Below, in pieces: positions 16,449 to 58,237 of a stretch of DNA of 64,000 nucleotides (positions within the stretch are counted from its first letter, which is position 1; each line of letters starts with the position of its first letter). Both the position numbers and the translations under genes were made by a program. This stretch comes from Solirubrobacteraceae bacterium (GTDB lineage Bacteria > Actinomycetota > Thermoleophilia > Solirubrobacterales > Solirubrobacteraceae): positions 4,052-68,051 of the forward strand of contig JBEKNK010000001.1 of assembly GCA_049522915.1 (NCBI GenBank). Direction: 5' to 3'. The notes under the pieces are model-generated. The model saw nothing but the letters and a program-made list of their open reading frames with translations, made no database searches and was not told the origin of the DNA.

Positions 16449-16449
16449 C

Positions 16450-18762: not shown

Positions 18763-18776
18763 GACGGTGACCTGCT

Positions 18777-34889: not shown

Positions 34890-34932
34890 GGATCGCGCCA
34901 AACGCGCGCGAATCCGGCCGCCGTCGATCAGG

Positions 34933-34951
34933 CCCACTTGCTGGGTTTTTT
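34933..34951 (+). terminator. weak hairpin followed by a T6 tract
   Basis: CCCA-CTTGC-TGGG then TTTTTT, 45 nt after the DUF1365 stop. T-runs are very rare in this window. Confidence 0.3.
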
Positions 34952-35008
34952 GTTGCAGTTTGGAGGAGACCTCGTACATCCGTCGACGCTGGTTACAATC
35001 CTCCCCGG

Positions 35009-39940: not shown

Positions 39941-40105
39941 ACCCGCATATCGGCGCTGAAAGCACCCGACCACAGCGTGCTCGACAGGCGTAGCGGAGAC
40001 GGGCTCGTTTCTGGACGTTCGTCGTATGCGGACAGGCAGATACGGTCCCCCGCCGACACTGATTGAATGCGAGCGGCGCGCGGCTGCCCGCGCCCGCGCC
40101 GACCT

Positions 40106-41662: not shown

Positions 41663-42436
41663 TCAGCAGCGAACGGCCGAGATGTTCCAGTCGCGCAGGG
41701 CGACGCTGCGGTAGGTCACCGCGGGATCGGCCGTCGTGCTCAGCGACGCGTCGATCGCGGGCCTACCCGAGGCGACGGCGATGACGGTGCTCCAGCCGGC
41801 GCCGGGAGCGAGCGTGATCGGACCGAACCGGCGCGCCGGCCTTCCCGCCACGAGCACCGAAACCTCATAGCTGGTGACGTGCAGCTGCTCGTTGATCACC
41901 CCCACGCAGGCCGCGCTGCGACCGTTCGGGGCCGGCACCAACCACAGCGCGCTCGTCTCCTGGGTGCCCGTCGGCGCCCGCAGCGGCGTGAAGCCGAGCA
42001 CCGCGGCGCCGGCCAGCAACGCGACGGCGACGGCCGCCGCGGCGCCATCTGCGCGACGGATGCGCAGGCGTGGCATCGCGATCGGACGAGCCAGTCCCCT
42101 GGCGCTCCCCCACGCAGCGCCGGCCAGCGTCAGTACGGCGAGCAAGCCCATCCACGGCGCGGTCGTGAGCGAGATGCCGAGCAGATCGAGTAGCAGCCCT
42201 GCGAGGATCGTTGCCGCGATGCTGAAGGCAACCGACAGCGTGGCGATCTCCGCCCCGCGCAGATCATGCGAGCGGAACAGCGCGCTGGCGAGCACGTAGC
42301 CGGGCAGCGCGAGCACGAGCGGCAGGCAGAGCAGCGTTCGCAGCAGGGCCAGGCTCGATGGGAGCACCGCCGCGAAGACGAGCGCCGCGAGCGCGAGCGC
42401 CATCGCGAGTGCCAGATCGGTCCGAGGTCTCACCAC
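41663..42436 (-). CDS. DUF1616-like membrane protein
   Basis: N-terminal TM helices with LPGYVLASALF...ATLSVAFSIA...GLLLDLLGISL pattern, plus a C-terminal beta-rich exported domain. Overlaps the upstream gene stop (GTGGTGA). Confidence 0.55.
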   Translation of the reverse strand: MVRPRTDLALAMALALAALVFAAVLPSSLALLRTLLCLPLVLALPGYVLASALFRSHDLRGAEIATLSVAFSIAATILAGLLLDLLGISLTTAPWMGLLAVLTLAGAAWGSARGLARPIAMPRLRIRRADGAAAAVAVALLAGAAVLGFTPLRAPTGTQETSALWLVPAPNGRSAACVGVINEQLHVTSYEVSVLVAGRPARRFGPITLAPGAGWSTVIAVASGRPAIDASLSTTADPAVTYRSVALRDWNISAVRC

Positions 42437-44262: not shown

Positions 44263-44272
44263 GGACGGCGCC

Positions 44273-45502
44273 TCAACGCCCGGCGAGGCTAGCTCTCCGG
44301 CTCGCGAGGGCTCGCTCGTAGGCAGCTTCGTAGCGGGGGACGACCGCCGGCGCGCTGAAGGCCTCGACGCGCGACCGCGCACCCGCGCCGAGGCGCTCAC
44401 GAAGCGCCGGATCGCCGATCAGCCGATCGAGGGCGCCGGCCAGCTCACCAGCGTCACCCGGCGTGACGAGGAGTCCGCTCTCCCCGTCGATGACGGCCTC
44501 GGGCAGCCCGCCGATCCGCGAGACCACGACCGCCGTGCCTGCGGCCATCGCCTCGAGCGCCACGGTCGGGAACGGGTCGGGCCAGATCGACGGGACGACA
44601 CCGATCGCGCAGCGCCGCCAGGCGGCGAGCAGGGCGTCGTGGGGCAGCAGCCCGAGATTGATCACGTTGTCGCGCATCGGCAGCAGGTGCGGCTCGACCG
44701 GCCGGCCCGCCACGACAAGCGGTGCCGCGGTGCTCATTCGAGCGTGGGCGTCGAGCAGTACCCCGACTCCCTTATCGGTGGTGATGTCGCCGGCAAAAAG
44801 AATGAAAGGTTCATTGGGAAGCCAGCTCGCAAGCGCTGGATCGAACCCGGCCGTGGCGGCGTCCGAGGCCCTGAAGTTCGGCACCACCTCGTAGGGCAGA
44901 CGGCTCCCGGTGAGGCCGCAGCGCCGCGCGACGTCGTTGCTGACCGGCAGCAACAGGTCGGCCGCGCGCCGCTGCGCGGCGCCCGAGAGCATCGTCAGGA
45001 AGGCCACGGGCGGCCCGACGGCGCGGCCATAGTGCTCGCCAGCGCAGACCGCGCACTTCGCCAGGGCCGGACCGCTGCACGGGGCGCCCCTGCGCATCAG
45101 GCGCTTGGTCGCGCAGCGCAGGCTGTAGTCGTGCAGGCTCAGCACGTACGCGGCGGAAGAGCGCCGGCGCAACGGCAGGTATGCGTGCGCCAGCCAGTTG
45201 TGCGCGTGGAGGACATCCGGGCGTTCGCGGGCGATCACGCGCCGCAGCGCCAGCACCGTCTCGGGGTCCGGTGCCGGCGGCGCGTGACGTCGCCCCGGCT
45301 CGCTGAACAGGCTTCCGACGCGCTGCGCGAGCCCCGGCAGGCGGTGCACGCGAATCCCGTCGATCTCCTCGAGCGCCGCGAGACCGGGCTGGCGCAACGT
45401 CGCCACCGCGACCTCGTGGCCCCGCTGCGCGAGGGCAGCCGAGAGCGACTGCGTCATGCGCTCCTCGCCGCCGACGATCGGCGCGTAGAACTGGGCGAGC
45501 AT
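44273..45502 (-). CDS. glycosyltransferase family 4 (GT-B) with Cys-rich insert
   Basis: MLAQFYAPIVGGEE N-terminus and the E-x7-E region (PDPFPTVALEAMAAGTAVV). Insert C-x11-C-x7-C-x2-C. Confidence 0.85.
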   Translation of the reverse strand: MLAQFYAPIVGGEERMTQSLSAALAQRGHEVAVATLRQPGLAALEEIDGIRVHRLPGLAQRVGSLFSEPGRRHAPPAPDPETVLALRRVIARERPDVLHAHNWLAHAYLPLRRRSSAAYVLSLHDYSLRCATKRLMRRGAPCSGPALAKCAVCAGEHYGRAVGPPVAFLTMLSGAAQRRAADLLLPVSNDVARRCGLTGSRLPYEVVPNFRASDAATAGFDPALASWLPNEPFILFAGDITTDKGVGVLLDAHARMSTAAPLVVAGRPVEPHLLPMRDNVINLGLLPHDALLAAWRRCAIGVVPSIWPDPFPTVALEAMAAGTAVVVSRIGGLPEAVIDGESGLLVTPGDAGELAGALDRLIGDPALRERLGAGARSRVEAFSAPAVVPRYEAAYERALASRRASLAGR

Positions 45503-45510
45503 CAGGATTC

Positions 45511-46671
45511 TCAACGCCGCCCACCTGCCGCGCGACGGTAGCGCTCGAGCAGCGCCGCCGCACACTCGTCCCATGTCGGCAGCGAGAACGGCGCCCGCAC
45601 CAACGGGTCGCGCAGCTCGCGCAGGATCGCCTCGGCGACCGCCTGAGCGGGCATGTCCGCCTCGATCGCGCGCGCCAAACCGCGCTGCGCGAGCTCGCCG
45701 AGACCCGAGCCGGAAGCCACCAGGAGTGGGCGCCCCAGCGAGATCGCCTCGAGCGCCGCGATCGGGTGCGTCTCGTAGTCGCTGAGCAGGGCCACGAGAT
45801 CCACCTCCGAGAGCCGGCGCGCCATCTCGGCGCGGTCATCGGCGGAGACGGCGCTGATCTCGACCGCGGCGGCGATCCCGAGATCCGCGGCCAGACGCCG
45901 TAGCTCCGCCTCGTACGGGCCCGCCCCGGCCACCCACAGTCGGGCCCCGGGCTCGGCGTCGAGCACGTGCGCGAACGCCGCGATCACGCGGTGGTGGCCC
46001 TTGTATCGCTCCAGCCGCCCGACCGAGGCGATCAGCGGATGCGCGGCCGGCGCGCTGCCATTCAGCGCCTGCGCCGGCGGCGGAAGATCCACGCCATTCG
46101 GGATCAGCGCAAAACGCTGCACCGGGATCCGAAGCTCCGCCGAGTAGGTCTCGATCTCGAACGGGGCGAGCGCGACGAGCGTGGCGGCCCGAGTGAGCAA
46201 TGGGCGCAGCAGCGCCCGCTGGGCGCGGCGAGCCCGGTTGCGCATCGGCTGCGAATGCCCGCCGCCGTGAAAGGTGAGGAGATATGGAATGCGACGCCGT
46301 GCGGCTGCGGCCATCGCGATCGGCGCCACGAACGTGTGGTAGGACTGCACGTGGACGACGTCCCATCCGCCCTCGGCGATCACCGTCGCGATCCCCGGCG
46401 CGAACATCCAGTCGCGTCCACGCGGGTGGGCGGCGACACGTCGGATCTCCACGTCGCCGTCCGCATCGGCGCTCGCTCCGCTGCCGTCGCTGACGGTCGT
46501 GAGCACGGTCACGGACGCCTCGCCGCTGCGCGCCAATCGCGTCGCCACTTCATGAACGTGGCGCTCCACCCCACCGATCTCCGGCAGATACCGCGGGGTC
46601 ACCATCAGCACGTTCAGCCGATGGTCCTGCGGGCGCCGGAGCGCGCCGCCCTCCCCTGGCACCTCGGTCAT
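45511..46671 (-). CDS. glycosyltransferase family 4 (GT-B)
   Basis: VLMVTPRYLPEIGGVERHV N-terminus and ETHPIAALEAISLGRPLL C-terminal motif. ATG overlaps the upstream stop (ATGA). Confidence 0.85.
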   Translation of the reverse strand: MTEVPGEGGALRRPQDHRLNVLMVTPRYLPEIGGVERHVHEVATRLARSGEASVTVLTTVSDGSGASADADGDVEIRRVAAHPRGRDWMFAPGIATVIAEGGWDVVHVQSYHTFVAPIAMAAAARRRIPYLLTFHGGGHSQPMRNRARRAQRALLRPLLTRAATLVALAPFEIETYSAELRIPVQRFALIPNGVDLPPPAQALNGSAPAAHPLIASVGRLERYKGHHRVIAAFAHVLDAEPGARLWVAGAGPYEAELRRLAADLGIAAAVEISAVSADDRAEMARRLSEVDLVALLSDYETHPIAALEAISLGRPLLVASGSGLGELAQRGLARAIEADMPAQAVAEAILRELRDPLVRAPFSLPTWDECAAALLERYRRAAGGRR

Positions 46672-47735
46672 GGTGCCAGCCGCTCGGAGGCCAGTGGCGC
46701 GCGCTGGGGTGAGCGATCCTCATCCGGGGGTGAGCCCGGCGCGAGCGGCTTCGTTGCGGCGCCCTCGCCGGCGGCGCCCTCGCGCCGCGCGGTGAAGCAG
46801 CGGCTGCGAGCGTAGGCGGCCGTCGTGATCCCCAGTCCCGCCGTGATCGCCGACGCACGCGCCACGCCATCGCCGCGTCCGCTCGCGGCGAGTCGCAGCT
46901 CACGGCGCAACGCGCGAGGCAGCACGGAGCGCACGTATGCGCGTTCTGAGCGCAGGCCCTCGTCGCCACCGGCGATGCCCGAGAGAACCGCCTTCGCGGT
47001 GCCCTCGACGACGCAGCGGCGCACGAAGTAACGCCAGGTTCCGCGCTCGGGCGGCACGGCGTGCGCGACGCGCGCCCGGGGCTCGTAGATCCAGTAATGC
47101 CCGGGGTGAGCGCGCGCGGCGCGGATGCACAGCTCGGTCTCCTCGGCGCTTCCCGACAGCGTCCTCGATCCGCCAGCGCGACCGAGCCGCGCGTCGAAGG
47201 CGCCCGCGCGCGCGAGAACCGCGGCCCGCATCGACATGTTCGCGCCGATCACGTTGCGGACACGGGCGGTGCTCGTCGGCATGCCGGCGTAGGTGCAGCC
47301 GACCACCCAGTTGAACTCCGGCGGGAACCACCGCGGCGCGCCCCGCTCCCAGGCCGGCTCGATCGAGCCGCCCACGCCGAGCACCTTCGGGTCGCTGTAG
47401 GCCTCCACCAGCCGCGCCAGCCAGTGCTCCTGCGCGATCGCGTCGTCGTCGAGGAACGCGAGAATCGAGCCCCGCGCCTCCTCGGCGCCGGTCTGGCGGG
47501 CACCCGACAGGCCACGATCGTGGCTGTTACGGACGATCTGCGCACCGCTCAGCCGGGCTCGCACGTGCTCCTCGAGCGCCTCGTCCCCATCGATCACGAC
47601 GATCGCCTCAAGCGGCGGCGGCGTTTGCGCGAGGACCGACGCCACCGCAGCGCGGAGGTTCGCGAGGCGCTCGAGCGTGTGGGTGCAGACGATCACCGAG
47701 ATCGTCTCCGGCTGGAGGCTCGTCGCGGACATCAT
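46668..47735 (-). CDS. glycosyltransferase family 2 (GT-A)
   Basis: ISVIVCTHT...VIDG...LSGARQTG...AFLDDDA (DxD). ATG-ATG start at 47735. Confidence 0.85.
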   Translation of the reverse strand: MMSATSLQPETISVIVCTHTLERLANLRAAVASVLAQTPPPLEAIVVIDGDEALEEHVRARLSGAQIVRNSHDRGLSGARQTGAEEARGSILAFLDDDAIAQEHWLARLVEAYSDPKVLGVGGSIEPAWERGAPRWFPPEFNWVVGCTYAGMPTSTARVRNVIGANMSMRAAVLARAGAFDARLGRAGGSRTLSGSAEETELCIRAARAHPGHYWIYEPRARVAHAVPPERGTWRYFVRRCVVEGTAKAVLSGIAGGDEGLRSERAYVRSVLPRALRRELRLAASGRGDGVARASAITAGLGITTAAYARSRCFTARREGAAGEGAATKPLAPGSPPDEDRSPQRAPLASERLAP

Positions 47736-47785
47736 CGACACAGTAGCCGTTGCACTTGGCGGCGCCCGACGTCCGCCGGCGAGCC

Positions 47786-49636
47786 TCAGCCGGGGCCCGA
47801 TCGCCGGCCTTCCCTGCCCAGGGTGCGTGCGAGCGCGGCGTCCAGGGCCTCGTGGATGTACACCTGCGACCAGGCTGAGCGGAACACGTGCTCCGCCGTC
47901 GGGATCCGCTCGAGGTGCAGGTTCGGCCACTCATCGAGCCGTTCCAGCAGGCCGTATGCGACGAAGTCGTCGTAGAGCGGCTCGCCGAGCGAGAGCAGCA
48001 GGAGGGACTCAACGTCACCCTCACGCAGCCGATCCAGGGCTTCGACGATGTCCGCGTCTGAGGTCGTGGTCGGGCTGCCGCCGCGTCCGAAGCGCATGCG
48101 CCGCGCGGTCACGCGCACCATCCTGGCGAGCCGCCAGCGATCGGCGGCAACGATCCGCGCGATCGTGCCCAGATCGCGCTCGCGCAGCAGCGCCCGTGTG
48201 CGCCGGGCGTCTCGCATCGCGCCGAAATCGTCGCTCCAGTAGAAGGCCAGAAGGTTCACGAGCAACAGGCCGCGCACGCGCTCGTCAGCCAGCGCCGCGT
48301 GCAGGCCCCAATAACCGCCCGAGCACAGGCCGCCGACGATGAACCGGCCGGGAAGGCCGCGGCGCTCGAGCTCATCGCAGGCGGCGATCACCTGCTTTGC
48401 GAGCTCGTGGCGCTGGAAGGACGTGCGCGCGGCGTAGAGGTCCTCTGCGCCGTCGGAGTCGCCGACCCCGAGCACGTCGAGCCGCAGTGTCGAGACCCCG
48501 CGCGCGGCCCAGCGGCGGGCCACCTCCACCCACATTCGGTGGTGGCCGATGCGCCGCACGGCGCCGGGGTTCAGCAGGATCGCGCAGAGCGCGACCTCGA
48601 CGGAGGAAGCGACCGGTTCGGTCAGCACGCCGCTGAGCAGCTCGCCGGCGAACTCGAACTCAAACGGCGTCTCGCGGATCGCGACCTCGGCGACCGTCAG
48701 CTCGAGCTCGGCCGCGCGCGCGGGCGCCGCCGCAAACGGCGGAAACGCGTCCGCCCCGGCGACTGCGTCGGCGAGCCAGCGAGTCGTGTACGCGAATGTC
48801 TCCCACGGCGTCTTCGAGAACTGGGGGTCGACCATCATCGCGCCGTAGCCGGCGCCGTCGGCGACCGTGACCTCGGCTCCGCTGCGTTCGTAGTGCTCGC
48901 GCAGCCGCTGGTCGACCTCGCTGGAGTCGCGCCGCAGGAAGAGAATTCGCCGCCGGTCGGCGTTGGGGACCGGCAGCTCGGTCAGCTTCAACGCCTCGAT
49001 CGCCGCCACGGTCTCGGCCGTCATCAGGAAGCCCGACGCGTTCACGGCGCCCTCGCCCAGCACCTCGCTGTCCGCGGGCGCCGGTGGTGTCTCCTTCACA
49101 GCACCGATGTGCACCGCCTCGGCGTCGAGAATCCGCGCGAAGGCCTGGAGCTCGCGCATGAAGACGTGGCCGCGCGAGTACACGCCCCAGAGCACGAGAT
49201 CGTCAATCGGCGCTCCAAGCGCAAGCGCGCGGGCTGCGACGATGCCGCCGAGCCCGATCCCGATCGCGACGATCCGCTCGCATCCCTGGTTCGCCCTCAG
49301 GGACGCTGCGACGCCTTCGAGCGCCGCGGTCCAGGCTTCGAGGCGCTCGGGATCCCGCGGCGACCCGGCGCTGTCGCCACAACCGGGCAGGTCAAACCGC
49401 AGCGTCGGATGGCCGGCCTCCGCGAGCGCGCCTGCCCAGGAGCGGAGACTGCGGTGTGAGCTCAGTTCGTCCCAGCCGAACGGGGAGCACAGAATCACGC
49501 CGGTGGCAGATCGCTCGCGCTCGCGCGGGATGTGCGCCATGACGAAGACCGGATCCGGCTCGGTTGCGAGGTAGAACGGGCGCCCGCGCGCGGCGAGCGG
49601 CCGATCGGCGAGCAGATCTGGAACGAGTTCGGTCAT
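47786..49636 (-). CDS. fused tandem alpha/beta-hydrolase-fold protein (hydrolase-2-like + hydrolase-1-like halves)
   Basis: 616 aa with two alpha/beta-fold halves. The nucleophile elbows read GIGLGG (Gly) and GLCSGG (Cys). Each half has an LRFD/LRLD...GxGDSxG segment. Confidence 0.65.
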   Translation of the reverse strand: MTELVPDLLADRPLAARGRPFYLATEPDPVFVMAHIPRERERSATGVILCSPFGWDELSSHRSLRSWAGALAEAGHPTLRFDLPGCGDSAGSPRDPERLEAWTAALEGVAASLRANQGCERIVAIGIGLGGIVAARALALGAPIDDLVLWGVYSRGHVFMRELQAFARILDAEAVHIGAVKETPPAPADSEVLGEGAVNASGFLMTAETVAAIEALKLTELPVPNADRRRILFLRRDSSEVDQRLREHYERSGAEVTVADGAGYGAMMVDPQFSKTPWETFAYTTRWLADAVAGADAFPPFAAAPARAAELELTVAEVAIRETPFEFEFAGELLSGVLTEPVASSVEVALCAILLNPGAVRRIGHHRMWVEVARRWAARGVSTLRLDVLGVGDSDGAEDLYAARTSFQRHELAKQVIAACDELERRGLPGRFIVGGLCSGGYWGLHAALADERVRGLLLVNLLAFYWSDDFGAMRDARRTRALLRERDLGTIARIVAADRWRLARMVRVTARRMRFGRGGSPTTTSDADIVEALDRLREGDVESLLLLSLGEPLYDDFVAYGLLERLDEWPNLHLERIPTAEHVFRSAWSQVYIHEALDAALARTLGREGRRSGPG

Positions 49637-52215
49637 CTGGCCTCTGTTCTCATGATCGGCAGGCGACCGGCGAGGTTGAGCGCTGTGAGCGCGCCGTCGC
49701 CCGGCCCAACCTCGCCCGCGAGAGCCCGCAGCGCGATTCGCCGCTCGCCGCCGGGCTCAATCGAGAACGCGTCATCGTCCGCCTGAAAGCCGGGAAGGTG
49801 CACACCCACACCGTAGACGAAGCACTTCGCGCGTATTTTCAGCTCAGCCGCACCGTCGCCCGTGGCGCTCAGAGTAGCCTGCAGTCCCAGCCGCGCCGCG
49901 GATTCGCGTTGCAGCGCACGCCCCGCGGGCAGCCGGAAGCATTGTGAGAGCAGCTCCACCCCGTCCTGGGTGTCGCGTTCGAGGCTGCAGGCAACGACAT
50001 CCGCCGCCACCGGGCCGAAGCGGTAGGCCCACGACACGTCCATGAAACGGCCGATCAGCTCCTCGACATCGTGCACGCAGCCCGAGTGCGGTGCGAGCTC
50101 CAGCTCTCGCGTCGCCTCCTCGACCCTGACCTCCGCATCGCGGTAGAGCGCGACGCGCAGCCGCGCGCGCACGGGCGTCGAGCCGTCGTTGGCGACGTGG
50201 ACCGCGATCCCGCCCAACCCCTCGTCGGTGCTCCACACGGCGAGCGGCGCCAGCACGCGGCGCAGATGGTGGTAGGCGACCTTCGGTTCGCCGCGATGGT
50301 CGAGCACGCCCCAGCCGGCGCCCGGGCAGAGGTCGCGCAGCCACAGCACGAGGCCCCCGCCACAGCCCGACTGCTCACGCCGCCACTCACCGAAGACCTC
50401 CGACATCACCTCACCGCTGAGCGCCCGCGACAGCTCGAGGTAGCGCTCGAGGTCGCTGCGGCGCAGCTCGGATGGGTCGACCGCGAACAACTCGGCGAGA
50501 TAGTGGTCGCGCACGTCGTCGAAGTCCCAGCCGACCCCGGTGTCGCGCGGGACGCCGGCCTTCCAGCGTGGGTCGTGAACGGCGACGGGCGCCGTGGATC
50601 CCTCGGCCAGCTCGTCGAGCACGGCCTCGCCGGGCACGTTCGCGAAGGCGAGGCACTCCGCGGCGAAGCGCACCTGCGAACGGCGCACGTCGTCGAGCGC
50701 GCGCCGGTAGCCCCCGACGCCGTAGTAGTTCGCGACGCCACGATCAGGGCGAAACGGCAGCGATCCGCCCCACGGCGCGGACGGGACCCATACGGCATCG
50801 ACCTCGGCTTCGCGGATCAGACTCGGCAGGAGCTCGCCGTAGAGCGGCCCGTCGGCGAGCGCCGGGTCGAGACCGAGCATTGCGACCTGCTGCGCGACCT
50901 CGCTCGAGCCGCAGAGGACGGCGAGGCTGGGACGGCCGCCGACGTCGTCGAGCAGCTGGCGCGCCTCGCTCGCAACGGCCACCATGAACGCCGGGTCCGA
51001 TTCGGGGTAGTCGAGGTTCGCGAACATGAAGTCCTGCCAGACGAGAATGCCCAGTTCGTCGCAGAGATCGTGGAAGGCGACCGACTCATACGCCGCGGTA
51101 CCGGGGATGCGCAACATGTTCATCCCGCCCGCGCGGACCGTTTCAAGCAGCGCTCGCAGGTCGGCGCGCGAGGTTGCTCCGCCGCTGGCCTCCAGGGGTG
51201 TCCACACCGCGCCGCGCACGAACACGGCGACGCCGTTGATCGTCAGCTGAAGTCCGTCGCGCTCGAGCGCTTCGCCGCCGCCCAGCTCGCGGAAGCCAAC
51301 CCGGCCGCAGTCGATCGTGAGGCTCCCCGGCTCGCCCTGCACCTGCAGCGTGACGTCGTAGAGGTTCGGGTCGCCGTGGGTGTGCGGCCACCAGCGCGCC
51401 ACATCCGCGACGGCCAGCTCGCCCTCTGCCTCGAGCTCGTCCGCGCCGACCCGCAGCGCCAGCTCGGCGGCGTGGCTTCCGCCCGGGCCGTCGATCGCAA
51501 CGACGATCCGCTCGGGCACGGGCCCGTCGAGCATGCGCAGGCGCGCGGTAACCGCGAGAACGCCGTCCTTCCCTTCGACGCGGGGTCGCAGCCGCAGGCC
51601 GCTGAGCTCGAGCGCCCGGCGGCGCTCGAGCGCCACCGGGCGCCAGGGCCCGACGACCGCGGGGCCGGGCGCGAAGCCCGGGGCTCGTCCGAGCAGCATG
51701 GTGCGAAAGAAACGCAGACCGCCCTCGCCGACGAGTCGCGTGCGCCAGCGCGCGCGCGGACGACGCGCGAGCGCGAGCAGCGGCGTGAGCGCGCGGCAGC
51801 AGATCGCAAGTTCGTTCTCCGCCGCCAGGAGCGCCGTGACGTCGACCGCCGAGCGGGCGAACATCGACTCGCCGGCGAGGATCCGCTCACCGTTGAGATA
51901 GACCTCGGAGACGGTCGCGAGACCGTCGAAGGCGAGCACGAGCTGCTCCCCCGGCCCGGCTGGATCGGCGATCAGGCGGCGGCGGAACCACCAGTCGCGG
52001 GCGTCCAGCGGCGTGGCGGCGATCTCCCGCCGCGGCACGCCGGCGTGAGTAAGCACGTCGGCGGCGGCGCCGGGAACGCGCGCCGGGCGCCAGAGGAGCG
52101 CATCGAGCCCGACCGGTTCGGCGTATGCGCCGGGCTCGGAGTCGGCAGCCTCCCAGCCGTCGCGCAGATCCTCACGCTCGTGCCCCTCGACGGCGCCGCG
52201 AGAGGTGCACGCCAC
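49633..52215 (-). CDS. glycoside hydrolase family 2 protein (beta-mannosidase-like), no signal peptide
   Basis: GMNMLRIPGTAAYE...FHDLCDELGILVWQDFMFANLDYP is a signature-like stretch. Candidate catalytic Glu in CGSSEV and FAAECL. GTG 52215 chosen; the ATG of the next gene overlaps its stop (ATGA). Confidence 0.7.
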   Translation of the reverse strand: MACTSRGAVEGHEREDLRDGWEAADSEPGAYAEPVGLDALLWRPARVPGAAADVLTHAGVPRREIAATPLDARDWWFRRRLIADPAGPGEQLVLAFDGLATVSEVYLNGERILAGESMFARSAVDVTALLAAENELAICCRALTPLLALARRPRARWRTRLVGEGGLRFFRTMLLGRAPGFAPGPAVVGPWRPVALERRRALELSGLRLRPRVEGKDGVLAVTARLRMLDGPVPERIVVAIDGPGGSHAAELALRVGADELEAEGELAVADVARWWPHTHGDPNLYDVTLQVQGEPGSLTIDCGRVGFRELGGGEALERDGLQLTINGVAVFVRGAVWTPLEASGGATSRADLRALLETVRAGGMNMLRIPGTAAYESVAFHDLCDELGILVWQDFMFANLDYPESDPAFMVAVASEARQLLDDVGGRPSLAVLCGSSEVAQQVAMLGLDPALADGPLYGELLPSLIREAEVDAVWVPSAPWGGSLPFRPDRGVANYYGVGGYRRALDDVRRSQVRFAAECLAFANVPGEAVLDELAEGSTAPVAVHDPRWKAGVPRDTGVGWDFDDVRDHYLAELFAVDPSELRRSDLERYLELSRALSGEVMSEVFGEWRREQSGCGGGLVLWLRDLCPGAGWGVLDHRGEPKVAYHHLRRVLAPLAVWSTDEGLGGIAVHVANDGSTPVRARLRVALYRDAEVRVEEATRELELAPHSGCVHDVEELIGRFMDVSWAYRFGPVAADVVACSLERDTQDGVELLSQCFRLPAGRALQRESAARLGLQATLSATGDGAAELKIRAKCFVYGVGVHLPGFQADDDAFSIEPGGERRIALRALAGEVGPGDGALTALNLAGRLPIMRTEAR

Positions 52216-52241
52216 GCGTAGGAGCTGGGCGCGGTCCGCGT

Positions 52242-53219
52242 CTATCCGACGACCTCCTCGAGCCCCGCGATCGCCTGCTTCCACGCGTCGCCGAGCGGCG
52301 CGACGATCGGCTCGGGGTCGAACGCGCGCCGGCGCGCCAGGCGGAAGCCGAGCACCTTGCAGCCCTCGACGATCGCGCGCATCGGCGCGGTACACGCCCG
52401 CGCGTCGGCGCCGAGCAGCCACTCCGCCTGCGTCGCGGCGAGCTCGAACGCGGCGCCCACCATGCGGACGGTCGCAAAGGCGTAGGCGTGGTAGGCCTCC
52501 GGCCCGGCCTCCAGCAGCATCGGGAGGTCGCGATCGAGCGCCTGCGCGAAGCGCTCGAAGGGATCGCTCGCCGGCCGATGGGCGAGGTGCCGCCGCAACG
52601 AGGCGAGAGCGCCGGCGCGCAGCTCCCGGCCGGCGAGCCGCGGTCCGGCGTCAAAGCGCACCAGCTCGGTGTAGGGCGGCAGGATCTCCGGCGAGGGTTC
52701 GCCGTCCAGGCGGAAGATGCCGGTGTAGTCCTCACCTTCGAGCTCGTAGAGGCCGGCGCCGTGGAAGTAGCGCAGCCACCCGCGCTCCAGGTCGATCGCC
52801 TCGGCGACGACCGAGCTCTTGACGTGCTCGGTGTGGTAGCTGGTCGCCGCCGTGTCCGGAAGGTGCCAGGAGTCGAGCTCGACGATCAGCGTGCGGCCGC
52901 TGTCAATCTGCTCCGCGATCTGCAGCGGCAGCGGGCGGTAGGGCTGCATCTCGTGGACGTCGATGCCGAACAGCGACTCGAGATCCTCCGGCGGCGGCTT
53001 GAAGAAGGTCCACTGATCGCCCTCGAAGTCCGTCCGCACCAGGCAGCCGAGCACCGCCAGCGGCTCATCGCCGCGACCGTGCAGAAGTTCGATGATGATG
53101 TCGGTGTAGCAGTTGGTCTCCATGTAGGTTCGTCCGCTGCCGTGCACAGCGTGCGAGCGGTAGCCGTCCGCGTCGAGGCCGAACAGGCTGCGGTAGGTGC
53201 CGGTACGCGTAGCGCTCAC
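52242..53219 (-). CDS. DUF1839-like protein (possible BtrH-like Cys-dependent acyl/aminoacyl transferase)
   Basis: 325 aa. N-terminal YMETNCYTDIIIELLHGRG. GTG start overlaps the ligase stop (GTGA 53216-53219). Family name is from memory only. Confidence 0.5.
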   Translation of the reverse strand: MSATRTGTYRSLFGLDADGYRSHAVHGSGRTYMETNCYTDIIIELLHGRGDEPLAVLGCLVRTDFEGDQWTFFKPPPEDLESLFGIDVHEMQPYRPLPLQIAEQIDSGRTLIVELDSWHLPDTAATSYHTEHVKSSVVAEAIDLERGWLRYFHGAGLYELEGEDYTGIFRLDGEPSPEILPPYTELVRFDAGPRLAGRELRAGALASLRRHLAHRPASDPFERFAQALDRDLPMLLEAGPEAYHAYAFATVRMVGAAFELAATQAEWLLGADARACTAPMRAIVEGCKVLGFRLARRRAFDPEPIVAPLGDAWKQAIAGLEEVVG

Positions 53220-54145
53220 ACCCACAGCTCCCGCCGGACATCCGCCGGCCAGGACGCCGGATCGACGCCGTGGGCGTGCAGGAGCGCCAGCACGATCCGC
53301 TCCTGGCCGAAGCCGAGGCACGCCGTGTGGGCGCCACCGCCGTCAGCGAGCTTCAGGTCGTAGATGCCCGCAAAGTGATCCTGGTGGTAGTTGAACGACG
53401 CCACTGCGGTTGGCTCGTCGCCGGCGATCGCCACCAGCAGCTCGAGCTTCAGCTCCTGGGCTCGCTGGTTGGCGGCCAGCATCCGGCCGCCGCGCCCGAA
53501 GAACGGATCGGTGGCACGATCGGGGCGGGCGTCCAGGCCGAGCGAGCGCAGCAGGCCGAGCCCGCGCTCGCACCAACCGTCGCGCCAGGCGCGGACCTCG
53601 TCCGGCGCGCCGAGCCGCACGATCTCGCGCTGATGGAACATCTGCAGGCGAGCCGGATCCTCCGACGGTTCGTGGCGGAACACCCACGCACCGCCTGCAT
53701 CCACGACGACGCCGCCGCTGGGCAGCGGGCCACGCGCGGCGACGGCCGGGTAGACCGGGTAGCAGGCCGCCGGCACCAGCGCGAGCTCGGTCATGGACTG
53801 GAACTGGCTCCAATCCTCGTGCCGGTCCGCACGCTCGCCCTGGACCAGCGCCTCCTCCTCCCCGCCCTCGAAGGCGAAGACCGATCCCGCCAGGTGCGGG
53901 AATGAGTGCAGGTAGCCGATCGTCTCGATCTGGCGTCGCGGGAGCAGCGGGGGGAAGCGCATCGACTCGGGGGCGTCAACCGCAGCGGCCCTCGTGATCA
54001 GCGCGTCGACGCGTGCGCGGACGTCCTCGAACACGGCGCCCTTGCCGTAGAGCCCGGGGACGCCACTGGAGATGAACAGCCCGTGCGCGATCAGCTCGTC
54101 GCGGAACGCCGCCTGATCCGCGGTGGCCTGACGAACCCTCGCCAT
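53216..54145 (-). CDS. amino acid--[carrier protein] ligase (class II aaRS catalytic-core homologue, SerRS-like, no tRNA-binding domain)
   Basis: 309 aa only. Class II motifs: RFPPLLPRRQIETIGYLHSFPHL, VFRHEPS...LQMFHQREIV, HTACLGFGQERIVLALL. Candidate Zn ligands are Cys (PAACYP), Glu (HQREIV) and Cys (HTACLG). Confidence 0.75.
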   Translation of the reverse strand: MARVRQATADQAAFRDELIAHGLFISSGVPGLYGKGAVFEDVRARVDALITRAAAVDAPESMRFPPLLPRRQIETIGYLHSFPHLAGSVFAFEGGEEEALVQGERADRHEDWSQFQSMTELALVPAACYPVYPAVAARGPLPSGGVVVDAGGAWVFRHEPSEDPARLQMFHQREIVRLGAPDEVRAWRDGWCERGLGLLRSLGLDARPDRATDPFFGRGGRMLAANQRAQELKLELLVAIAGDEPTAVASFNYHQDHFAGIYDLKLADGGGAHTACLGFGQERIVLALLHAHGVDPASWPADVRRELWV

Positions 54146-55344
54146 CAGGGCTCCTTGGCGATCAGCAGCAGCGCCGCGTCGGTGGCGTGCAGGCGCTCGT
54201 TCGCGACCATCAGGCGAGCGGACAGCGAGTCACGCAGGTGACGGCCGATGCTGTAGGGCGTGTCGTTTCGGTAGCCGACGATGCCAACCACCTCGAGCGC
54301 GCCGGCGCAGACGCTCGGCGCGTGCTCGGAGGCTGCGAGTTTCAGGTTGTTGAAGCGCAGCACGCTCGCCATCGTCATCAGGCGAGCGCGATCATCGAGA
54401 TCATCGGCCTGGAAGTCGTGCAGCGCCGCAGACACCTCGCCGCGCAGCAATGTGAGCTCCGCCATCACGTGCGAGAGCCTTGCCGCGGCAGGCAGCGGCT
54501 CGCCCGGCGCGCGGCGGGCGCTGGCTCGCAGGAAAGCGCGCGCACGCTCGAACGCGTCGCTCGCGATGCCGAGCCAGACATGCGACCAGAGGATGTGCGA
54601 GAGCGGCACCATCGACTGGTTCATGACCACGGCGAAGGGCGCCGTCATCACCTGCTCCGGGGCGAAGCGGGCGCGCACGACAAACCCGGGTGAGCATGTC
54701 CCTCGCATGCCCAGCGTGTCCCACGCGCCGGCGGGCTCGAGCTCGGCCTGGCCGAACTTGGTCAGCACGAGCACCTGGTCGCCGGGCTCGGCCTCGGGCG
54801 TGCGGCGCAGCGTCGTCAACAGGTCGTCGGCGTGAGCGCCGTAGCTGACGGTCGGAGCCTGCTTCTCGAAGCTCATCTCGCCGTCCGCTTCCGGCGTGAC
54901 CGCGGCGATCGAGCGGCTCATGTCGCCGCCGGTGCCGATCTCCGACGTCGCCGAGGCGATCAGCCGCTGATCGCGATGGAGGTCCTGCAGATAGCCCTCG
55001 AACCACGGCGCGCCGTCGAGGTGGCGCGCGATCGTCAGCACCTGGATCTGGTGCATCGCAAAGACCATCGCAGTTGCGCTGCAGCGGCGCCCGAGCTCGA
55101 AGCAGCAGCGTGCGATCGTCTCAAGCGACGCGCCGTCGCCGCCGAGCGACTCCGGCACCGCGGCGGACAGGGCGCCGGCGGCCCGCAGCGCGTCGATCGC
55201 CTCGGTGGGAAAGCGCGCCTCGCGGTCGACGCTGTCAGCCGCCGCGGCCGCGACATCCTCGGCGATCCGCCGGACGGCCTCAAGCAGCGCCCGCTCGGAG
55301 TCCACGGGGACGCTCATCGAGCGGCGCCGCAGCTCACGCGCCAC
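54145..55344 (-). CDS. acyl-CoA dehydrogenase family protein (probably acting on a carrier-protein-bound substrate)
   Basis: 399 aa with ACAD three-domain pattern (FPTEAIDAL, TSEIGTGGD, WDTLGMRGTCS, GYRNDTPYSIGRHLRD). The start may be GTG 55344 or ATG 55317. Confidence 0.8.
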   Translation of the reverse strand: MARELRRRSMSVPVDSERALLEAVRRIAEDVAAAAADSVDREARFPTEAIDALRAAGALSAAVPESLGGDGASLETIARCCFELGRRCSATAMVFAMHQIQVLTIARHLDGAPWFEGYLQDLHRDQRLIASATSEIGTGGDMSRSIAAVTPEADGEMSFEKQAPTVSYGAHADDLLTTLRRTPEAEPGDQVLVLTKFGQAELEPAGAWDTLGMRGTCSPGFVVRARFAPEQVMTAPFAVVMNQSMVPLSHILWSHVWLGIASDAFERARAFLRASARRAPGEPLPAAARLSHVMAELTLLRGEVSAALHDFQADDLDDRARLMTMASVLRFNNLKLAASEHAPSVCAGALEVVGIVGYRNDTPYSIGRHLRDSLSARLMVANERLHATDAALLLIAKEP

Positions 55345-55615
55345 CGCCCGCCGCCGACGGCTCGCCGTCGGCTGACAGCTCGGCGACCGCCGCAGCGATT
55401 GCCGACACGCTGTCGAACACGCCCCGGGTCAGCATCCGGTCGGGAAACTCGATGTCGAAGGCGTCCTCCAGCGCGAGCATCAGGTTCACGCTCGCGTGCG
55501 ACGTCATGCCCGCGGCGAACAGATCCGTGTCATCGGCGAGCGTGTCCACATCGACGGGCAGGCGGGCGTGCTCGCGCAGCACGCGGCGGATCACGATGCG
55601 AGTGTCGTCGGTCAA
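55334..55615 (-). CDS. dedicated acyl/aminoacyl carrier protein
   Basis: 93 aa. LFAAGMTSHASVNLMLALEDAFDIEF, with Ser in the phosphopantetheine (DSL) position. TTG start overlaps the PPTase stop (TTGA). Confidence 0.7.
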   Translation of the reverse strand: MTDDTRIVIRRVLREHARLPVDVDTLADDTDLFAAGMTSHASVNLMLALEDAFDIEFPDRMLTRGVFDSVSAIAAAVAELSADGEPSAAGGGA

Positions 55616-56049
55616 CGCTCGCCACGCACCCGGGCGACGACGACCGCAGCCGCAAACGGGCCCTCATGGGTGAGGCTGACGTCAAGCCCCTCGACGCCGC
55701 GCATGAGCGCGAGCTCCCGCGCAGCACCCGTGAGCTCGATCGACGGTCGTCCGAAGCGGTCGGCGCGAACACCGACCGCCTGCCAGGGAACGGCCTCGTC
55801 GCCGGCGCGCAGCACCTTCAGCGCTGCCTCCTTGGCGGCGAAGCGGGCGGCGAGCCGTCGGGCGTCGGGCGCTCCGCCCGCGCTGGCGCAGTCGCGCAGC
55901 TCGCGGCTCGTGTACACCCGCCTAAGATAGCGCCCGGCGTGGACGCGGATTGAGTCCTCCACGGCGGCGACGGACATCAGGTCGATGCCGACCACCACGC
56001 CGTCGCGACGCGACGTGGCAGCGCTCCTCGCCCTGCCCCGGCGGATCAC
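55612..56049 (-). CDS. 4'-phosphopantetheinyl transferase, AcpS type
   Basis: VGIDLMSV and FAAKEAALK motifs. 145 aa. GTG start overlaps the methyltransferase stop (GTGA). Confidence 0.8.
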   Translation of the reverse strand: MIRRGRARSAATSRRDGVVVGIDLMSVAAVEDSIRVHAGRYLRRVYTSRELRDCASAGGAPDARRLAARFAAKEAALKVLRAGDEAVPWQAVGVRADRFGRPSIELTGAARELALMRGVEGLDVSLTHEGPFAAAVVVARVRGER

Positions 56050-56978
56050 GCGCCGGCTCCCGGGAGTTCCACGCGCGTCGCGGCGTAGTGCAGCTCGTGC
56101 CAGCCGCTCGCGCTCTCGCCCGGGCCAACGGGCTCACCATCGAGCCTGAGGCATTCGTGCAGCTCGAAGCCGTGCGCGGCGAGCTGGCGTTGCTGCTCGT
56201 CGCGCGTGATGTAGTAGTGCAGCAGCGAGAAGTCGTGCGCCGCGTCGTTGAGGATCGCGTGGTCCGAGCCAACCTGCTCCCATGCCCGCAGCCGCCGGCG
56301 GTTGCGAATGCTTCGCGGGAGTCTCAGCACCTGGCTCGCGAAGCTCACAGGGTTGGTCGCGTTGATGCTGCGAAGGGGTCCCCGCAGCAGCGGTGCGCAG
56401 GCCAGGTTGTGCGAGGAGAAGATCAGCAGGCCGGACGGCCGCAGCAGCCGGTGGAGCCCGTCGAGAAAGGCCCGGCGCTCATCGTGCGTGAGCACGTCGA
56501 TCACGGCATACCCGGCCACGATCGCATCCCAGCCCCCCGTTTCGAAGTCCGAGAGCTCGCGCAGGTCGCCCTGGCGGAAGGCGGCCTGCGGGTAGGTTCG
56601 CCGGCAGTACGCGATCATGTCGGCGGCGAGATCGACGCCGGTGACCGAGGTCGCCTTCTCGATCAGGTGGGCGGTCAGGCGCCCGCCGCCGCAGCCGAGT
56701 TCGAGCACGGTCCCCGAGAGGGCGTCGACGTGGGTGTCAAACAGCACGCGCTCGGCCGGCCGCAGCCGGCGCCCGCCGTAGCGGCGCAGCAGACCCCCGG
56801 ACCCCCAGACGCGCTGGTTGGCCTCGCGTTGCGCCTGCTCGGGCGTGAACGTGGCCTCCCCCTCCGGTGCGCCGGCGCCGGGCGGAGCGCCGTTCATCCG
56901 AGCGGTTGCTGAAGGTGCGTTGTGCATGACGGAGTCCTGGCGCGAAGCCCGAGCGTGCGCGAAGGCGCCGCTGTCCAC
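56046..56978 (-). CDS. class I SAM-dependent methyltransferase
   Basis: VLELGCGGGRL (motif I), DAIVAGYAV, LRPSGLLIFSSHN. The start may be GTG 56978 or ATG 56927. Confidence 0.8.
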   Translation of the reverse strand: MDSGAFAHARASRQDSVMHNAPSATARMNGAPPGAGAPEGEATFTPEQAQREANQRVWGSGGLLRRYGGRRLRPAERVLFDTHVDALSGTVLELGCGGGRLTAHLIEKATSVTGVDLAADMIAYCRRTYPQAAFRQGDLRELSDFETGGWDAIVAGYAVIDVLTHDERRAFLDGLHRLLRPSGLLIFSSHNLACAPLLRGPLRSINATNPVSFASQVLRLPRSIRNRRRLRAWEQVGSDHAILNDAAHDFSLLHYYITRDEQQRQLAAHGFELHECLRLDGEPVGPGESASGWHELHYAATRVELPGAGA

Positions 56979-57896
56979 TCAGCCGGCGGGCGAGAGGTCC
57001 GCGCGGGGCGGATGAAGCAGCGAGAGGTGGGCGCGGTCGTCGCCGTCGCGCACGCCTCCCGCGATCGAGTGCTCATGGGCGTCGGCGACAGGCGGCAGCT
57101 CGTGAAACGCCGGCCGCCATCCATGTTCATGCTGGGCGGCGGGGTCGCGTCGAACACGTTCTCGCAGGATCATACGCAGGATCCGCAGTCCGTCCCGCAC
57201 GGCGCTGAGCTTGCTCTCGCCGTGCAGGCGCTCGTATTCGACCGACGCGATCTCGACGACCTCCAGGCCCGCCCGCGCGACGCGCACGTGGATCAGGGTC
57301 TCCACCTCGAAGCCGTCACAGGTGACGTGCATGTGCGGCAGGCAGTGGTTCCAGAAGGCGTTGTAGCCGTAGCAGAGGTCCGTGTAGCGCGTTCCGAAGA
57401 GCACGTTCACGGCGAGCCCGAGCATGCGGTTGCCGAACGCCCTGATCGGCGTGATGTCGGTGCTGGCGCCACCGAGCGCGAAGCGCGACCCCTTGGCGAA
57501 GTCGTTGCCCGCGAGCAGCGCAGCGACGAACTGCGGGATCTCGGCCGGGTCATTGGAGGCGTCGGCGTCGAGCATCACGATGATGTCACCGGTCGCGGCC
57601 GCGAAGCCGCAGGCCAGCGCGTTGCCCTTGCCGCGGCCGTTCTGCAGGACGACGCGGACGTCGGGGCGGATCGTGCGGGCAACATCGATCGTGCCGTCCT
57701 TGGAGTGCCCGTCGACGAGCACGACCTCGTCCACGATCTCCGGGATGCGGGCGAGCACATGCGGCAGGTTCGCGGCCTCGTCGAGCGTGGGGATGACGAC
57801 GCTGATCGTCGCCGACGAGCGCCCCGCCGTGGCACGGGCGACCCGTCCCTCCACGGAGAAAAGTGCCGTCCCTGCCGTCGAATCCCTGACGCTCAT
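56979..57896 (-). CDS. glycosyltransferase family 2 (polyprenyl-phosphate sugar synthase-like); first gene of the operon
   Basis: ISVVIPTLDEAANL, VLVDGHSKDGT, MLDADASN (DxD). ATG 57896 preceded by GGAGG. Confidence 0.85.
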   Translation of the reverse strand: MSVRDSTAGTALFSVEGRVARATAGRSSATISVVIPTLDEAANLPHVLARIPEIVDEVVLVDGHSKDGTIDVARTIRPDVRVVLQNGRGKGNALACGFAAATGDIIVMLDADASNDPAEIPQFVAALLAGNDFAKGSRFALGGASTDITPIRAFGNRMLGLAVNVLFGTRYTDLCYGYNAFWNHCLPHMHVTCDGFEVETLIHVRVARAGLEVVEIASVEYERLHGESKLSAVRDGLRILRMILRERVRRDPAAQHEHGWRPAFHELPPVADAHEHSIAGGVRDGDDRAHLSLLHPPRADLSPAG

Positions 57897-58237
57897 CCTG
57901 GTACTACCTCCGCCGCGATGGAGCCTGATCGAGTGTTGGCGTCGATGCCGCACAGCCTCCGCTCCACGCAGTGCCCGAGCCCAGGGCGCAGGGGTGCATC
58001 GCCATGACGTTCGCGCTGTGCATGGCAATGTAACGGCTGCACCGGCGGCTTATTGCCGCTTGGGGAGAGAAATCACCAGCATCAGGCCGTGGGTGACGCC
58101 TTCGAACGTCGGCCCGCGCGGACCGGGGTGAGGCCGCCGAGCTCGTCCCCGAGAGCGGGCGGCCGACCGGAGCGAGCGGCCTCGCACGATCGGCGAGGAA
58201 GTCGTACGTCCGTCCAACGCGGGCGCCGCCGAAGCGC

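Follow-up and report, generated by a model that had tools for sequence, protein, structure and literature searches.

A seven-gene cassette around an amino acid:[carrier protein] ligase in a Solirubrobacteraceae glycan operon, and its possible role in glycan aminoacylation

What becomes of amino acids that a cell loads onto a small carrier protein instead of onto tRNA? Ligases of the amino acid:[carrier protein] type (aa:CP ligases), truncated relatives of seryl-tRNA synthetase (SerRS), were reportedly discovered in 2010 and their structures solved, and the characterised members are said, from the work of Mocibob in 2010/2013, to use Gly or Ala. A 2022 review gave the biological role of carrier-protein aminoacylation by these ligases as unknown. 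The question is raised again by a 64,000-nucleotide stretch of a Solirubrobacteraceae genome (contig JBEKNK010000001.1, positions 4,052 to 68,051; the whole stretch is called the window below), where a gene for such a ligase lies within a run of glycosyltransferase (GT) genes. By a narrow preference, we read the ligase and its conserved neighbours as a cytoplasmic carrier-protein aminoacyl-transfer module that would decorate the glycan of the surrounding GTs. The window has a G+C content of ~71%, its nearest relatives were Solirubrobacteraceae metagenome-assembled genomes (MAGs), and NCBI already holds identical DUF1839 and hydrolase proteins, so named, from a Solirubrobacteraceae MAG.

The ligase gene belonged to a conserved block of seven genes at 47786-56049, in the order 4'-phosphopantetheinyl transferase (PPTase), aminoacyl carrier protein (ACP), acyl-CoA-dehydrogenase-fold flavoprotein (ACAD), ligase, DUF1839 protein, glycoside hydrolase family 2 (GH2) protein, and double alpha/beta-hydrolase. 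Conservation was compared over 80 related genome loci, 71 of which had enough flanking sequence for full gene counts; all seven genes were present in 38 of these 71, and the PPTase alone was missing in 12 more. The gene order recurred in most of the 80 loci as well as on proteobacterial plasmids, so the arrangement is not due to chance. In the window, the block comprises the following genes.

55612..56049, minus strand: AcpS-type PPTase, 145 aa (PF01648, 2e-14; TIGR00556)
55334..55615, minus strand: aminoacyl carrier protein, 93 aa, with Ser39 in AGMTSHASV (PP-binding; NF005480)
54145..55344, minus strand: ACAD-fold flavoprotein, 399 aa (from GTG 55344) or 390 aa (from ATG 55317) (Acyl-CoA_dh_N, Acyl-CoA_dh_1)
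53216..54145, minus strand: aa:CP ligase, 309 aa, a truncated methanogen-type SerRS catalytic core (NF005479)
52242..53219, minus strand: DUF1839 protein, 325 aa, a predicted CtaG/CcbD-fold thiol acyl ligase (PF08893, 7.6e-97 in a Pfam search)
49633..52215, minus strand: GH2 beta-mannosidase-like protein, ~860 aa (Glyco_hydro_2_N2, Glyco_hydro_2), of uncertain start, GTG 52215 being the first in-frame start past the DUF1839 stop
47786..49636, minus strand: fused double alpha/beta-hydrolase, 616 aa (TIGR03101-like N half, TIGR03100-like C half)

The first five of these genes had been proposed by an earlier sequence-only reading, made from the nucleotides and their translations. When the open reading frames were re-read from the sequence, all five were present on the minus strand at the coordinates proposed, and every motif quoted for them (VGIDL, FAAKEAALK, GMTSHASV, FRHEPS, FHQREIV, GFGQERIVLALL, and YMETNCYTD) was found in the translations; a profile hidden Markov model (HMM) search, suggested there as a check, bore out the calls of ACPS, carrier protein, ACAD, aa:CP ligase, and DUF1839. 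Of the overlapping stop and start codons described, three were confirmed: GTGA at 56049-56046 (methyltransferase stop and PPTase start), TTGA at 55615-55612 (PPTase stop and ACP start), and GTGA at 53219-53216 (ligase stop and DUF1839 start). The ACAD/ligase junction was not the ATGA that had been claimed; it reads TGATG at 54147-54143, a 1-nt overlap, and is preceded by an AAGGAG Shine-Dalgarno sequence at 54156-54151, ahead of the ligase start. The choice of ACAD start between GTG 55344, which gives an 11-nt overlap with the ACP gene (stop codon TGA at 55336-55334), and ATG 55317 was as described. Coupling extended past the five genes, the GH2 stop and hydrolase start sharing an ATGA at 49636-49633, and the idea of a self-contained five-gene unit had to be given up, as the GH2-like and double hydrolase genes are conserved members too. 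A signal peptide or transmembrane segment was found in none of the seven proteins, and their chemistry should therefore be cytoplasmic.

Relatives of the block varied in extent. Azospirillum and Mycetohabitans plasmids carried a six-gene form, and no PPTase was found in these proteobacterial cassettes; in Bradyrhizobium diazoefficiens, bll0957 (the ligase) adjoins bll0958 (acd). The pairing of these genes had been thought undescribed, which does not hold. A supplement by Ozhelvaci and Steczkiewicz in 2023 already lists the neighbourhood, with GH2 at -1, then DUF1839, the ligase at +1, the ACAD at +2, and the ACP at +3, and a role was suggested there in “processing glycans in an acyl-CoA-dependent manner” (PMC10318531). 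Since the core neighbourhood and a glycan role were thus in print, the pairing is not new. What is added here are the structural neighbours of DUF1839, minimal sister loci, a flippase-hydrolase fusion, and a census of neighbouring genes, so the locus is only partly novel. It is a variant of a known, functionally orphan cassette, and its worth lies in making a question from 2010 testable, not in categorical newness.

The ligase, carrier protein, and PPTase would form a tRNA-independent amino-acid loading set, a prediction for which sequence could hardly give stronger support, because the first two matched crystallised proteins over their full length and the residues expected to matter were invariant. 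The ligase scored 398 bits against NF005479 (amino acid--[ACP] ligase; cutoff, 357), and its residues 8-305 aligned with residues 32-328 of Bradyrhizobium Bll0957 (PDB 3mey and 4h2w; E of 4e-81, ~46% identity). Archaeal type-2 SerRS (3w3s and 2cim) matched it through the C-terminal catalytic part alone, and the protein had no tRNA-binding or anticodon domain. The zinc ligands Cys128, Glu159, and Cys276, which aligned with those of Bll0957, were invariant in 91/91 orthologues, as were Arg157 of motif 2 and Arg283 of motif 3. The family is large, with at least 6,776 homologues at an E of ≤1e-10 among 8,000 candidates scored, and was seen in Actinomycetota, Pseudomonadota, and Bacillota, plus MAGs labelled Chloroflexota and Acidobacteriota. 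The carrier protein scored 110 bits against NF005480 (cutoff, 72) and matched Agrobacterium Atu2571 (PDB 2jq4 and 4h2w_C; E of 2e-20), the aminoacyl carrier protein with which the ligase was co-crystallised; its gene was adjacent in 75 of the 80 loci. Its phosphopantetheine site, Ser39, was invariant in all 85 orthologues, which settles in the affirmative whether the 93-aa protein has a modifiable Ser. The PPTase scored 59 bits against TIGR00556 (cutoff, 45) and fell under the housekeeping AcpS equivalog cutoffs; it lay beside the cassette in 56/80 loci by a first-pass count at a coverage of >0.4. With zinc ligands, motif 2 and 3 arginines, and carrier Ser all conserved, the earlier call of a truncated SerRS-type ligase with its own carrier and PPTase was upheld.

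Where a loaded amino acid would go next is suggested by the DUF1839 protein, whose gene occurred together with those for the ACP and ligase in 71 of the 80 loci. Its AlphaFold2 model, built with 39 homologues, was of high confidence (pLDDT, 88; pTM, 0.88) and combined a papain-like N domain with a helical C domain. In a Foldseek search of the PDB, all 16 matches at an E of ≤1e-3 were CtaG, CcbD, or AziU2/U3, aligned at full length over about 315-355 columns with TM-scores of 0.49-0.62, and ordinary papain-like proteases matched only above an E of 0.02. Identity to these structural matches was only 12-17%. Cys37 was invariant (77/77 orthologues), and either His132 or His153 and either Asp143 or Asp164, conserved residues picked from the alignment rather than from coordinates, are candidate partners for it. 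The sequence-only reading had assigned a BtrH-type transfer role; HMMER found no Pfam match to BtrH_N or DUF6005 even at an E of ≤10, so a sequence link to these families was dropped, the relationship appearing in structural comparison only. The transfer role itself gained support, because the only significant PDB neighbours of the model were CtaG, CcbD, and AziU2/U3 and Cys37 was invariant: DUF1839 would be a carrier-protein-to-acceptor acyltransferase for which CcbD offers a nearer precedent than BtrH does. The mechanism of CcbD/LmbD is ping-pong, with a Cys thioester, and links carrier-tethered proline by an amide bond to the amino sugar of the lincosamides (PMC12945683). CtaG is a papain-like, thiotemplated ligase dependent on a peptidyl carrier protein (PCP), with structural relatives that include BtrH and AsbE, and uses a carrier-bound amine as acceptor (PMC12865890), while AsbE moves 3,4-dihydroxybenzoate from AsbD to spermidine (PMC6836290). 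DUF1839 has itself been classed, by a claim of remote homology, as a papain-like fold with a rearranged C-(T/S)-H active site (PMC10318531). Amide ligation by a Cys, dependent on a carrier protein, is common to CtaG and CcbD, and the modelled fold predicts the same for DUF1839.

The ACAD very probably acts on the tethered amino acid, to judge from its genomic position, because its gene lies immediately between those of carrier protein and ligase in Actinomycetota, Pseudomonadota, and Bacillota. It had been compared with prolyl-PCP dehydrogenases, an analogy for which no specific support was found. Both domains were recognised (PF02771, 1.9e-14; PF00441, 2.6e-05), and the catalytic Glu of the short- and medium-chain dehydrogenases (SCAD/MCAD) was not kept: their IYEG aligned to L-M-V-A, with Val380 being V or I in 76/78 orthologues. 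In the alternative helix-G region, residue 243 was E in 58 sequences and Q in 11, and it is Q in the window protein. A profile of the cassette clade was equidistant between butyryl-CoA dehydrogenase (5.8e-23) and the nitrososynthases DnmZ, KijD3, and ORF36, which are N-oxygenases of amino sugars with the ACAD fold. With the canonical Glu base missing, alpha,beta-dehydrogenation, amine oxidation, and N-oxygenation are equally plausible. A likeness to the prolyl-ACP oxidase AnaB was considered and set aside: AnaB ranked first (1.3e-50) with a 9-sequence profile owing to a single Streptomyces homologue from an NRPS/PKS (nonribosomal peptide synthetase/polyketide synthase) context, and once that sequence was left out it fell below 1e-15, with butyryl-CoA dehydrogenase and the nitrososynthases tied. 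The fold is common to AnaB and PigA/RedW, the aminoacyl-S-carrier-protein oxidases, and the cassette clade did not group with AnaB or PigA.

The GH2 protein had beta-mannosidases as its top PDB matches (3e-48). Glu435 aligned with the acid/base Glu of WCGNNEV in 6byg and was invariant in 62/62 orthologues, as was Glu516 (F-A-A-E-C-L), which we take to be the nucleophile position from motif analogy and not from alignment. The Asn that canonically precedes the acid/base recognises the C2 substituent of the sugar; here that residue was Ser434, in 61 of the 62 orthologues. These residues would fit an enzyme active as a retaining glycosidase or transglycosidase whose recognition of the sugar C2 is altered.

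The double hydrolase resembled TIGR03101 in its N half (2e-25; 90 bits against a cutoff of 203) and TIGR03100 in its C half (3e-22; 79 bits against a cutoff of 168), and its AlphaFold2 model (pLDDT, 84.5) had two alpha/beta domains. The GxSxG elbow was absent from both halves, being G-I-G-L-G in the N half and G-L-C-S-G in the C half. At the N-half elbow, G128 was found in 56/66 orthologues, and because Gly there replaces the nucleophile, the N-terminal domain (residues 1-300) is probably a pseudo-enzyme, perhaps a docking or substrate-binding module. In the C half, Cys438 of the GxCxG box was present in 66/66 orthologues and His583 in 63/66, and by the topology of the model Glu552 and His583 occupied the canonical positions of the triad acid and base. 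Such a Cys nucleophile would suit a thioester acyl relay better than simple hydrolysis.

That the module serves a glycan is argued by the genes among which it lies. The window presents a run of GT2, methyltransferase, the seven cassette genes, GT2, GT4, GT4, and GT-C, with a Wzx-like gene alongside.

56979..58028, minus strand: GT2, polyprenyl-phosphate sugar synthase-like (PF00535, 8e-24; TIGR04182 AglJ, 1.7e-39; ArnC/PpgS-like)
56046..56978, minus strand: S-adenosylmethionine-dependent methyltransferase (Methyltransf_25, 3.6e-19)
46668..47930, minus strand: GT2 glycosyltransferase (PF00535, 3.4e-22)
45511..46671, minus strand: GT4 glycosyltransferase (Glyco_transf_4, Glycos_transf_1)
44273..45574, minus strand: GT4 glycosyltransferase (Glycos_transf_1, 1.6e-27)
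42430..44400, minus strand: GT-C (PMT_2/ArnT-like) polytopic membrane glycosyltransferase (PF13231, 2.7e-08; multiple transmembrane-like segments)
40067..41647, plus strand: Wzx-like polysaccharide flippase, polytopic (Polysacc_synt_3, 9.8e-12)

The GT2 gene at 56979..58028 was syntenic in five relatives (L001, L002, L006, L015, and L086), the Wzx-like gene in L086. In L086/L087 (ENA contigs, ~8235-19488; ligase 74% identical), a reduced cassette sat in the same operon, which reads EamA, GH16, GT2, PPTase, ACP, ligase, hydrolase, GT4, GT4, GT-C, DUF1616, and Wzx: PPTase, ACP, ligase, and hydrolase were retained, and ACAD, DUF1839, and GH2 were gone, with gaps of 133 and 157 bp where they would sit. 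About six loci, L010, L012, and L074 included, had this minimal pattern. A Tsukamurella plasmid carried homologues of the PPTase, ACP, ligase, and hydrolase in an exopolysaccharide locus, amid a priming transferase and several GTs, and the Burkholderia gladioli cassette adjoined exopolysaccharide genes. On plasmid p3 of Rhizobium sp. NLR16a (L093, 16856-20167), a 1,103-aa fusion joined an N-terminal Polysacc_synt_3 (Wzx-like) domain to the double hydrolase; it kept the Cys box as GRCSGG, and GT4 genes lay inside the cassette on both sides of the fusion gene. Pfam scans of the 253 nearest neighbours of 47 loci placed GT4 (16), GH26, DegT aminotransferases, sugar epimerases/dehydratases, GT2, Polysacc_synt_2/_3, polysaccharide deacetylases, and priming transferases at the head of the neighbour families, and the most frequent class of neighbour in related loci was that of genes for glycans and amino sugars. 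The glycan link that had been proposed from the window was thus favoured by the operon context, the minimal sister loci, the flippase fusion, and the census.

Homology to characterised proteins underpins the loading step of the module we favour, and every later step is inferred. The AcpS-type PPTase would turn the 93-aa carrier protein holo at Ser39, and the zinc-dependent, SerRS-derived ligase would use ATP to join a small amino acid as a thioester to the phosphopantetheine arm, with no tRNA involved. The ACAD-fold flavoprotein may then oxidise the tethered aminoacyl group. DUF1839 would take the acyl group onto Cys37 and pass it to an amine, forming an amide in ping-pong fashion as CcbD does with prolyl-S-carrier protein and an amino sugar, and as CtaG, BtrH, and AsbE do in pathways of their own; the likely acceptor would be an amino sugar on an intermediate linked to a nucleotide or a lipid. 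The Cys-His-Glu C half of the hydrolase could act as a second thiol acyl relay, to the lipid-linked glycan just before flipping, and the GH2-like retaining glycosidase could trim or transglycosylate the same sugar, after which the finished unit would exit the cell via Wzx and the GT-C enzyme.

The minimal loci raise a somewhat different division of labour, in which the double hydrolase is the real aminoacyl transferase to the glycan and ACAD, DUF1839, and GH2 are an optional sub-module for editing or elaboration. DUF1839 might, for example, use the distal elongation known from CtaG to condense aminoacyl-S-ACP units into a di- or oligopeptidyl-S-ACP, with the hydrolase transferring the product; we regard this as somewhat unlikely, and as a mechanistic variant that does not exclude the module proposed above. 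The double hydrolase, not DUF1839, is the partner retained in minimal versions, where ACP and ligase also persist and ACAD, DUF1839, and GH2 have been lost together; its invariant Cys nucleophile and fusion to a flippase point the same way, as does the carrier-bound amine that serves CtaG as acceptor. Peptide elongation does not, however, explain why GH2 is lost with the others, and at least 5 loci have ACAD, DUF1839, and GH2 yet no hydrolase within 10 kb. Nor is any member of this alpha/beta-hydrolase subfamily known to have been characterised, and the fold search returned generic esterases and thioesterases only.

Several observations weigh against transfer to a glycan. The roles given to ACAD, GH2, and hydrolase are drawn from residues and context alone, and the fold search for the hydrolase was uninformative, with 937 generic matches (PETase, feruloyl esterases, lipases, and thioesterase domains). 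Among 60 plasmid records having a hydrolase homologue, only one showed the flippase-hydrolase fusion. Many cassette neighbours were housekeeping genes, and GT2 or GT4 lay within 10 kb in only 21 of 47 related loci, a lower bound, as the iterative HMMs used for this count missed GT-C and Wzx entirely and undercount other families. Cassettes of Azospirillum, Mycetohabitans, and Caballeronia stood alone with no GT or flippase genes near, and the operon of the window had no obvious amino-sugar-forming enzyme (aminotransferase or deacetylase). More distant relatives of the ligase also occurred in NRPS/PKS and peptide-like clusters. In the Streptomyces sp. NBC_00557 plasmid (L090, ~4061-12231), genes for a ketosynthase (KS), an alpha/beta-hydrolase, a 3-hydroxyacyl-CoA dehydrogenase, a PP-binding protein, an ACAD, the ligase (36% identity), and an acyltransferase (AT) adjoined NRPS genes; its ACAD is the sequence that had pulled the profile toward AnaB, and the whole presumably resembles an aminomalonyl-ACP-type extender-unit cassette (zwittermicin ZmaG-J logic) with a loader like an aminoacyl-tRNA synthetase (aaRS). 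The Priestia aryabhattai plasmid p-LAD4 (L089, ~8130-16689) carried AcpS, ACP, ACAD, ligase (38%), a drug/metabolite transporter (DMT), an ATP-grasp protein, a type II thioesterase, an alanine permease, and an alanine racemase, with a D-Ala-D-Ala ligase upstream, and is an alanine-themed small-molecule or peptide setting of the ACP-ACAD-ligase triad.

Such settings would suit a soluble small molecule as the product, be it an aminoacylated glycoside, a short peptide, or something siderophore-like, the GTs of the window then being coincidental or glycosylating the metabolite; the acylation by DUF1839 would be of a free amine, after the manner of AsbE and BtrH, GH2 would strip off a sugar that served for protection or activation, and the hydrolase would be a thioesterase. 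This is the main rival, and we judge it unlikely. It draws on the stand-alone six- and five-gene operons of the three proteobacteria, on the ligase-ACP-ACAD triads that in Priestia accompany genes for ATP-grasp, type II thioesterase, and alanine functions and in Streptomyces those for KS, AT, and NRPS, and on the fact, also awkward for a glycan target, that every relative of the DUF1839 fold that has been solved or characterised belongs to natural-product (secondary) metabolism and not to envelope glycan synthesis. Set against it are the translational coupling of the cassette with GT and methyltransferase genes on both sides, the persistence of the same glycan operon around the reduced cassette, the polysaccharide loci of Tsukamurella, Rhizobium, and B. 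gladioli, the existence of a flippase-hydrolase fusion, and the dominance of glycan genes among neighbours; moreover, neither an export pump nor a regulator nor any other gene typical of secondary metabolism lay in the window operon.

A cassette that acts on fatty acids, phospholipids, or lipoproteins, as the ACP and ACAD annotations and a prediction in a supplementary table (PMC10318531) would have it, is very improbable: the carrier is of the aminoacyl (Atu2571-like) type and not of the fatty-acid-synthesis type, the ligase is an amino-acid-activating aaRS core, and no conserved fatty-acid synthesis or lipid acyltransferase genes were found nearby. A reading of the 309-aa protein as a remnant of the housekeeping SerRS, be it a decayed fragment or a pseudogene, as the label “seryl-tRNA synthetase” given to homologues by JGI pipelines might imply, is refuted by its full-length match to a crystallised aa:CP ligase above the NCBIfam equivalog cutoff, by catalytic residues invariant in 91 orthologues, and by the thousands of homologues with conserved carrier-protein synteny.

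How, then, does the proposed transfer module compare with systems already known? With the Bll0957 and Atu2573-Atu2571 systems the window shares the ligase family, the zinc ligands, the carrier family, and the ACP-ACAD-ligase order, and the rhizobial systems have the same DUF1839 and GH2 neighbours (PMC10318531). The window differs from them in adding its own AcpS-type PPTase and a coupled methyltransferase, within an actinobacterial GT2/GT4/GT-C/Wzx operon. Enzymes of the CcbD/LmbD and CtaG/BtrH/AsbE class have, like DUF1839, an invariant N-terminal Cys and a gene beside those of a carrier protein and a loading enzyme, and the reaction proposed here is of the type carried out by CcbD, which links an amino sugar with an amino acid tethered to a carrier. 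Their loaders, however, are an NRPS A domain, an ATP-grasp enzyme, or an ANL enzyme, whereas that of the window is an aaRS-type ligase, and they serve antibiotic or siderophore synthesis, whereas the context in the window is envelope glycan synthesis.

The cassette would follow the logic of Dlt (DltA/DltC/DltB/DltD), in which the amino acid, once adenylated, waits on a small dedicated carrier protein before its transfer to an envelope glycopolymer; AlmEFG of Vibrio cholerae puts glycine on lipid A by the same carrier logic. The carrier protein of the window matched DltC models weakly. The activator is an ANL adenylase in Dlt and AlmEFG and a class II aaRS core here, and HMM scans found none of the MBOAT (DltB), DltD, or LpxL-like AlmG families among the proteins of the window operon; in place of those transferases are two thiol enzymes (DUF1839 and the Cys-type hydrolase), GH2, and the ACAD. 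The halves of the hydrolase were most similar to exosortase-A-associated hydrolases 2 and 1 (TIGR03101 and TIGR03100), in that order. Those proteins occur as pairs in PEP-CTERM/exopolysaccharide loci with an adenylating enzyme, and we know of no reaction for either family; the pair in the window differs in being fused and in scoring far under the cutoffs, and no exosortase genes were noted with it.

The established routes to aminoacylated surface glycans are ANL-adenylase/carrier systems (Dlt and AlmEFG) and aminoacyl-tRNA-dependent transferases. We suggest tentatively, with more reserve than for the module itself, that aaRS-derived ligases are the entry to a third, independent route, in which Gly or Ala, possibly oxidised, would be relayed through a CcbD-like DUF1839 that amidates an amino sugar and through the Cys-type hydrolase at the flippase to lipid-linked repeat units. 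If so, the orphan aa:CP ligase family, with its thousands of members, would gain a physiological function, and a tRNA-independent, aaRS-derived means of changing the charge and chemistry of envelope glycans would be added to those known. The search is narrowed by conserved partners that now include a GH2 with its catalytic residues intact, a Cys-type hydrolase, and an amide ligase predicted to be of the CcbD/CtaG type. With such partners, a polysaccharide and amino-sugar context, and natural full and minimal versions of the operon, the role of these ligases becomes testable in cultivable carriers, among them Bradyrhizobium, Azospirillum, Rhizobium, and Tsukamurella.

A number of further genes lie around the cassette. 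A homologue of the methyltransferase was found within 10 kb of it in 24/80 loci and directly upstream of the PPTase in ~12. The window protein (56046-56978) showed a weak, sub-threshold likeness to a daptide N-methyltransferase and to NodS; NodS methylates a sugar amine, and the transferred amino group could be a substrate of the window enzyme. The operon is flanked by three GH16 paralogues with signal-like N-termini (34886-36406, 37977-39221, and 58312-59667, all on the plus strand). GH16 genes also lay beside the cassette in L001, L002, L006, L015, L021, and L084-L087, a recurrence that suggests remodelling of the same polymer by a secreted GH16 enzyme. GH26, the beta-mannanase family, accounted for 5 of 131 nearest neighbours (loci L038-L076), a count that, taken with the beta-mannosidase likeness of the GH2, may point to a polymer based on mannose. 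An EamA/DMT transporter gene (59725-60702, plus strand) was syntenic in L001, L002, and L086, and a DMT transporter directly follows the Priestia ligase; in the Arn pathway, small DMT proteins act as flippases for amino sugars linked to lipids. Elsewhere on the plus strand, the window encodes a phosphoglucomutase/phosphomannomutase (28024-29826), an arylsulfotransferase (ASST) family protein (8448-10256), and, between two of the GH16 genes, a cyclopropane/mycolic-acid-synthase-like methyltransferase (36503-37828). The remaining genes of the window are housekeeping ones, among them those for SecDF, RecJ, RelA/SpoT, and PdxS.

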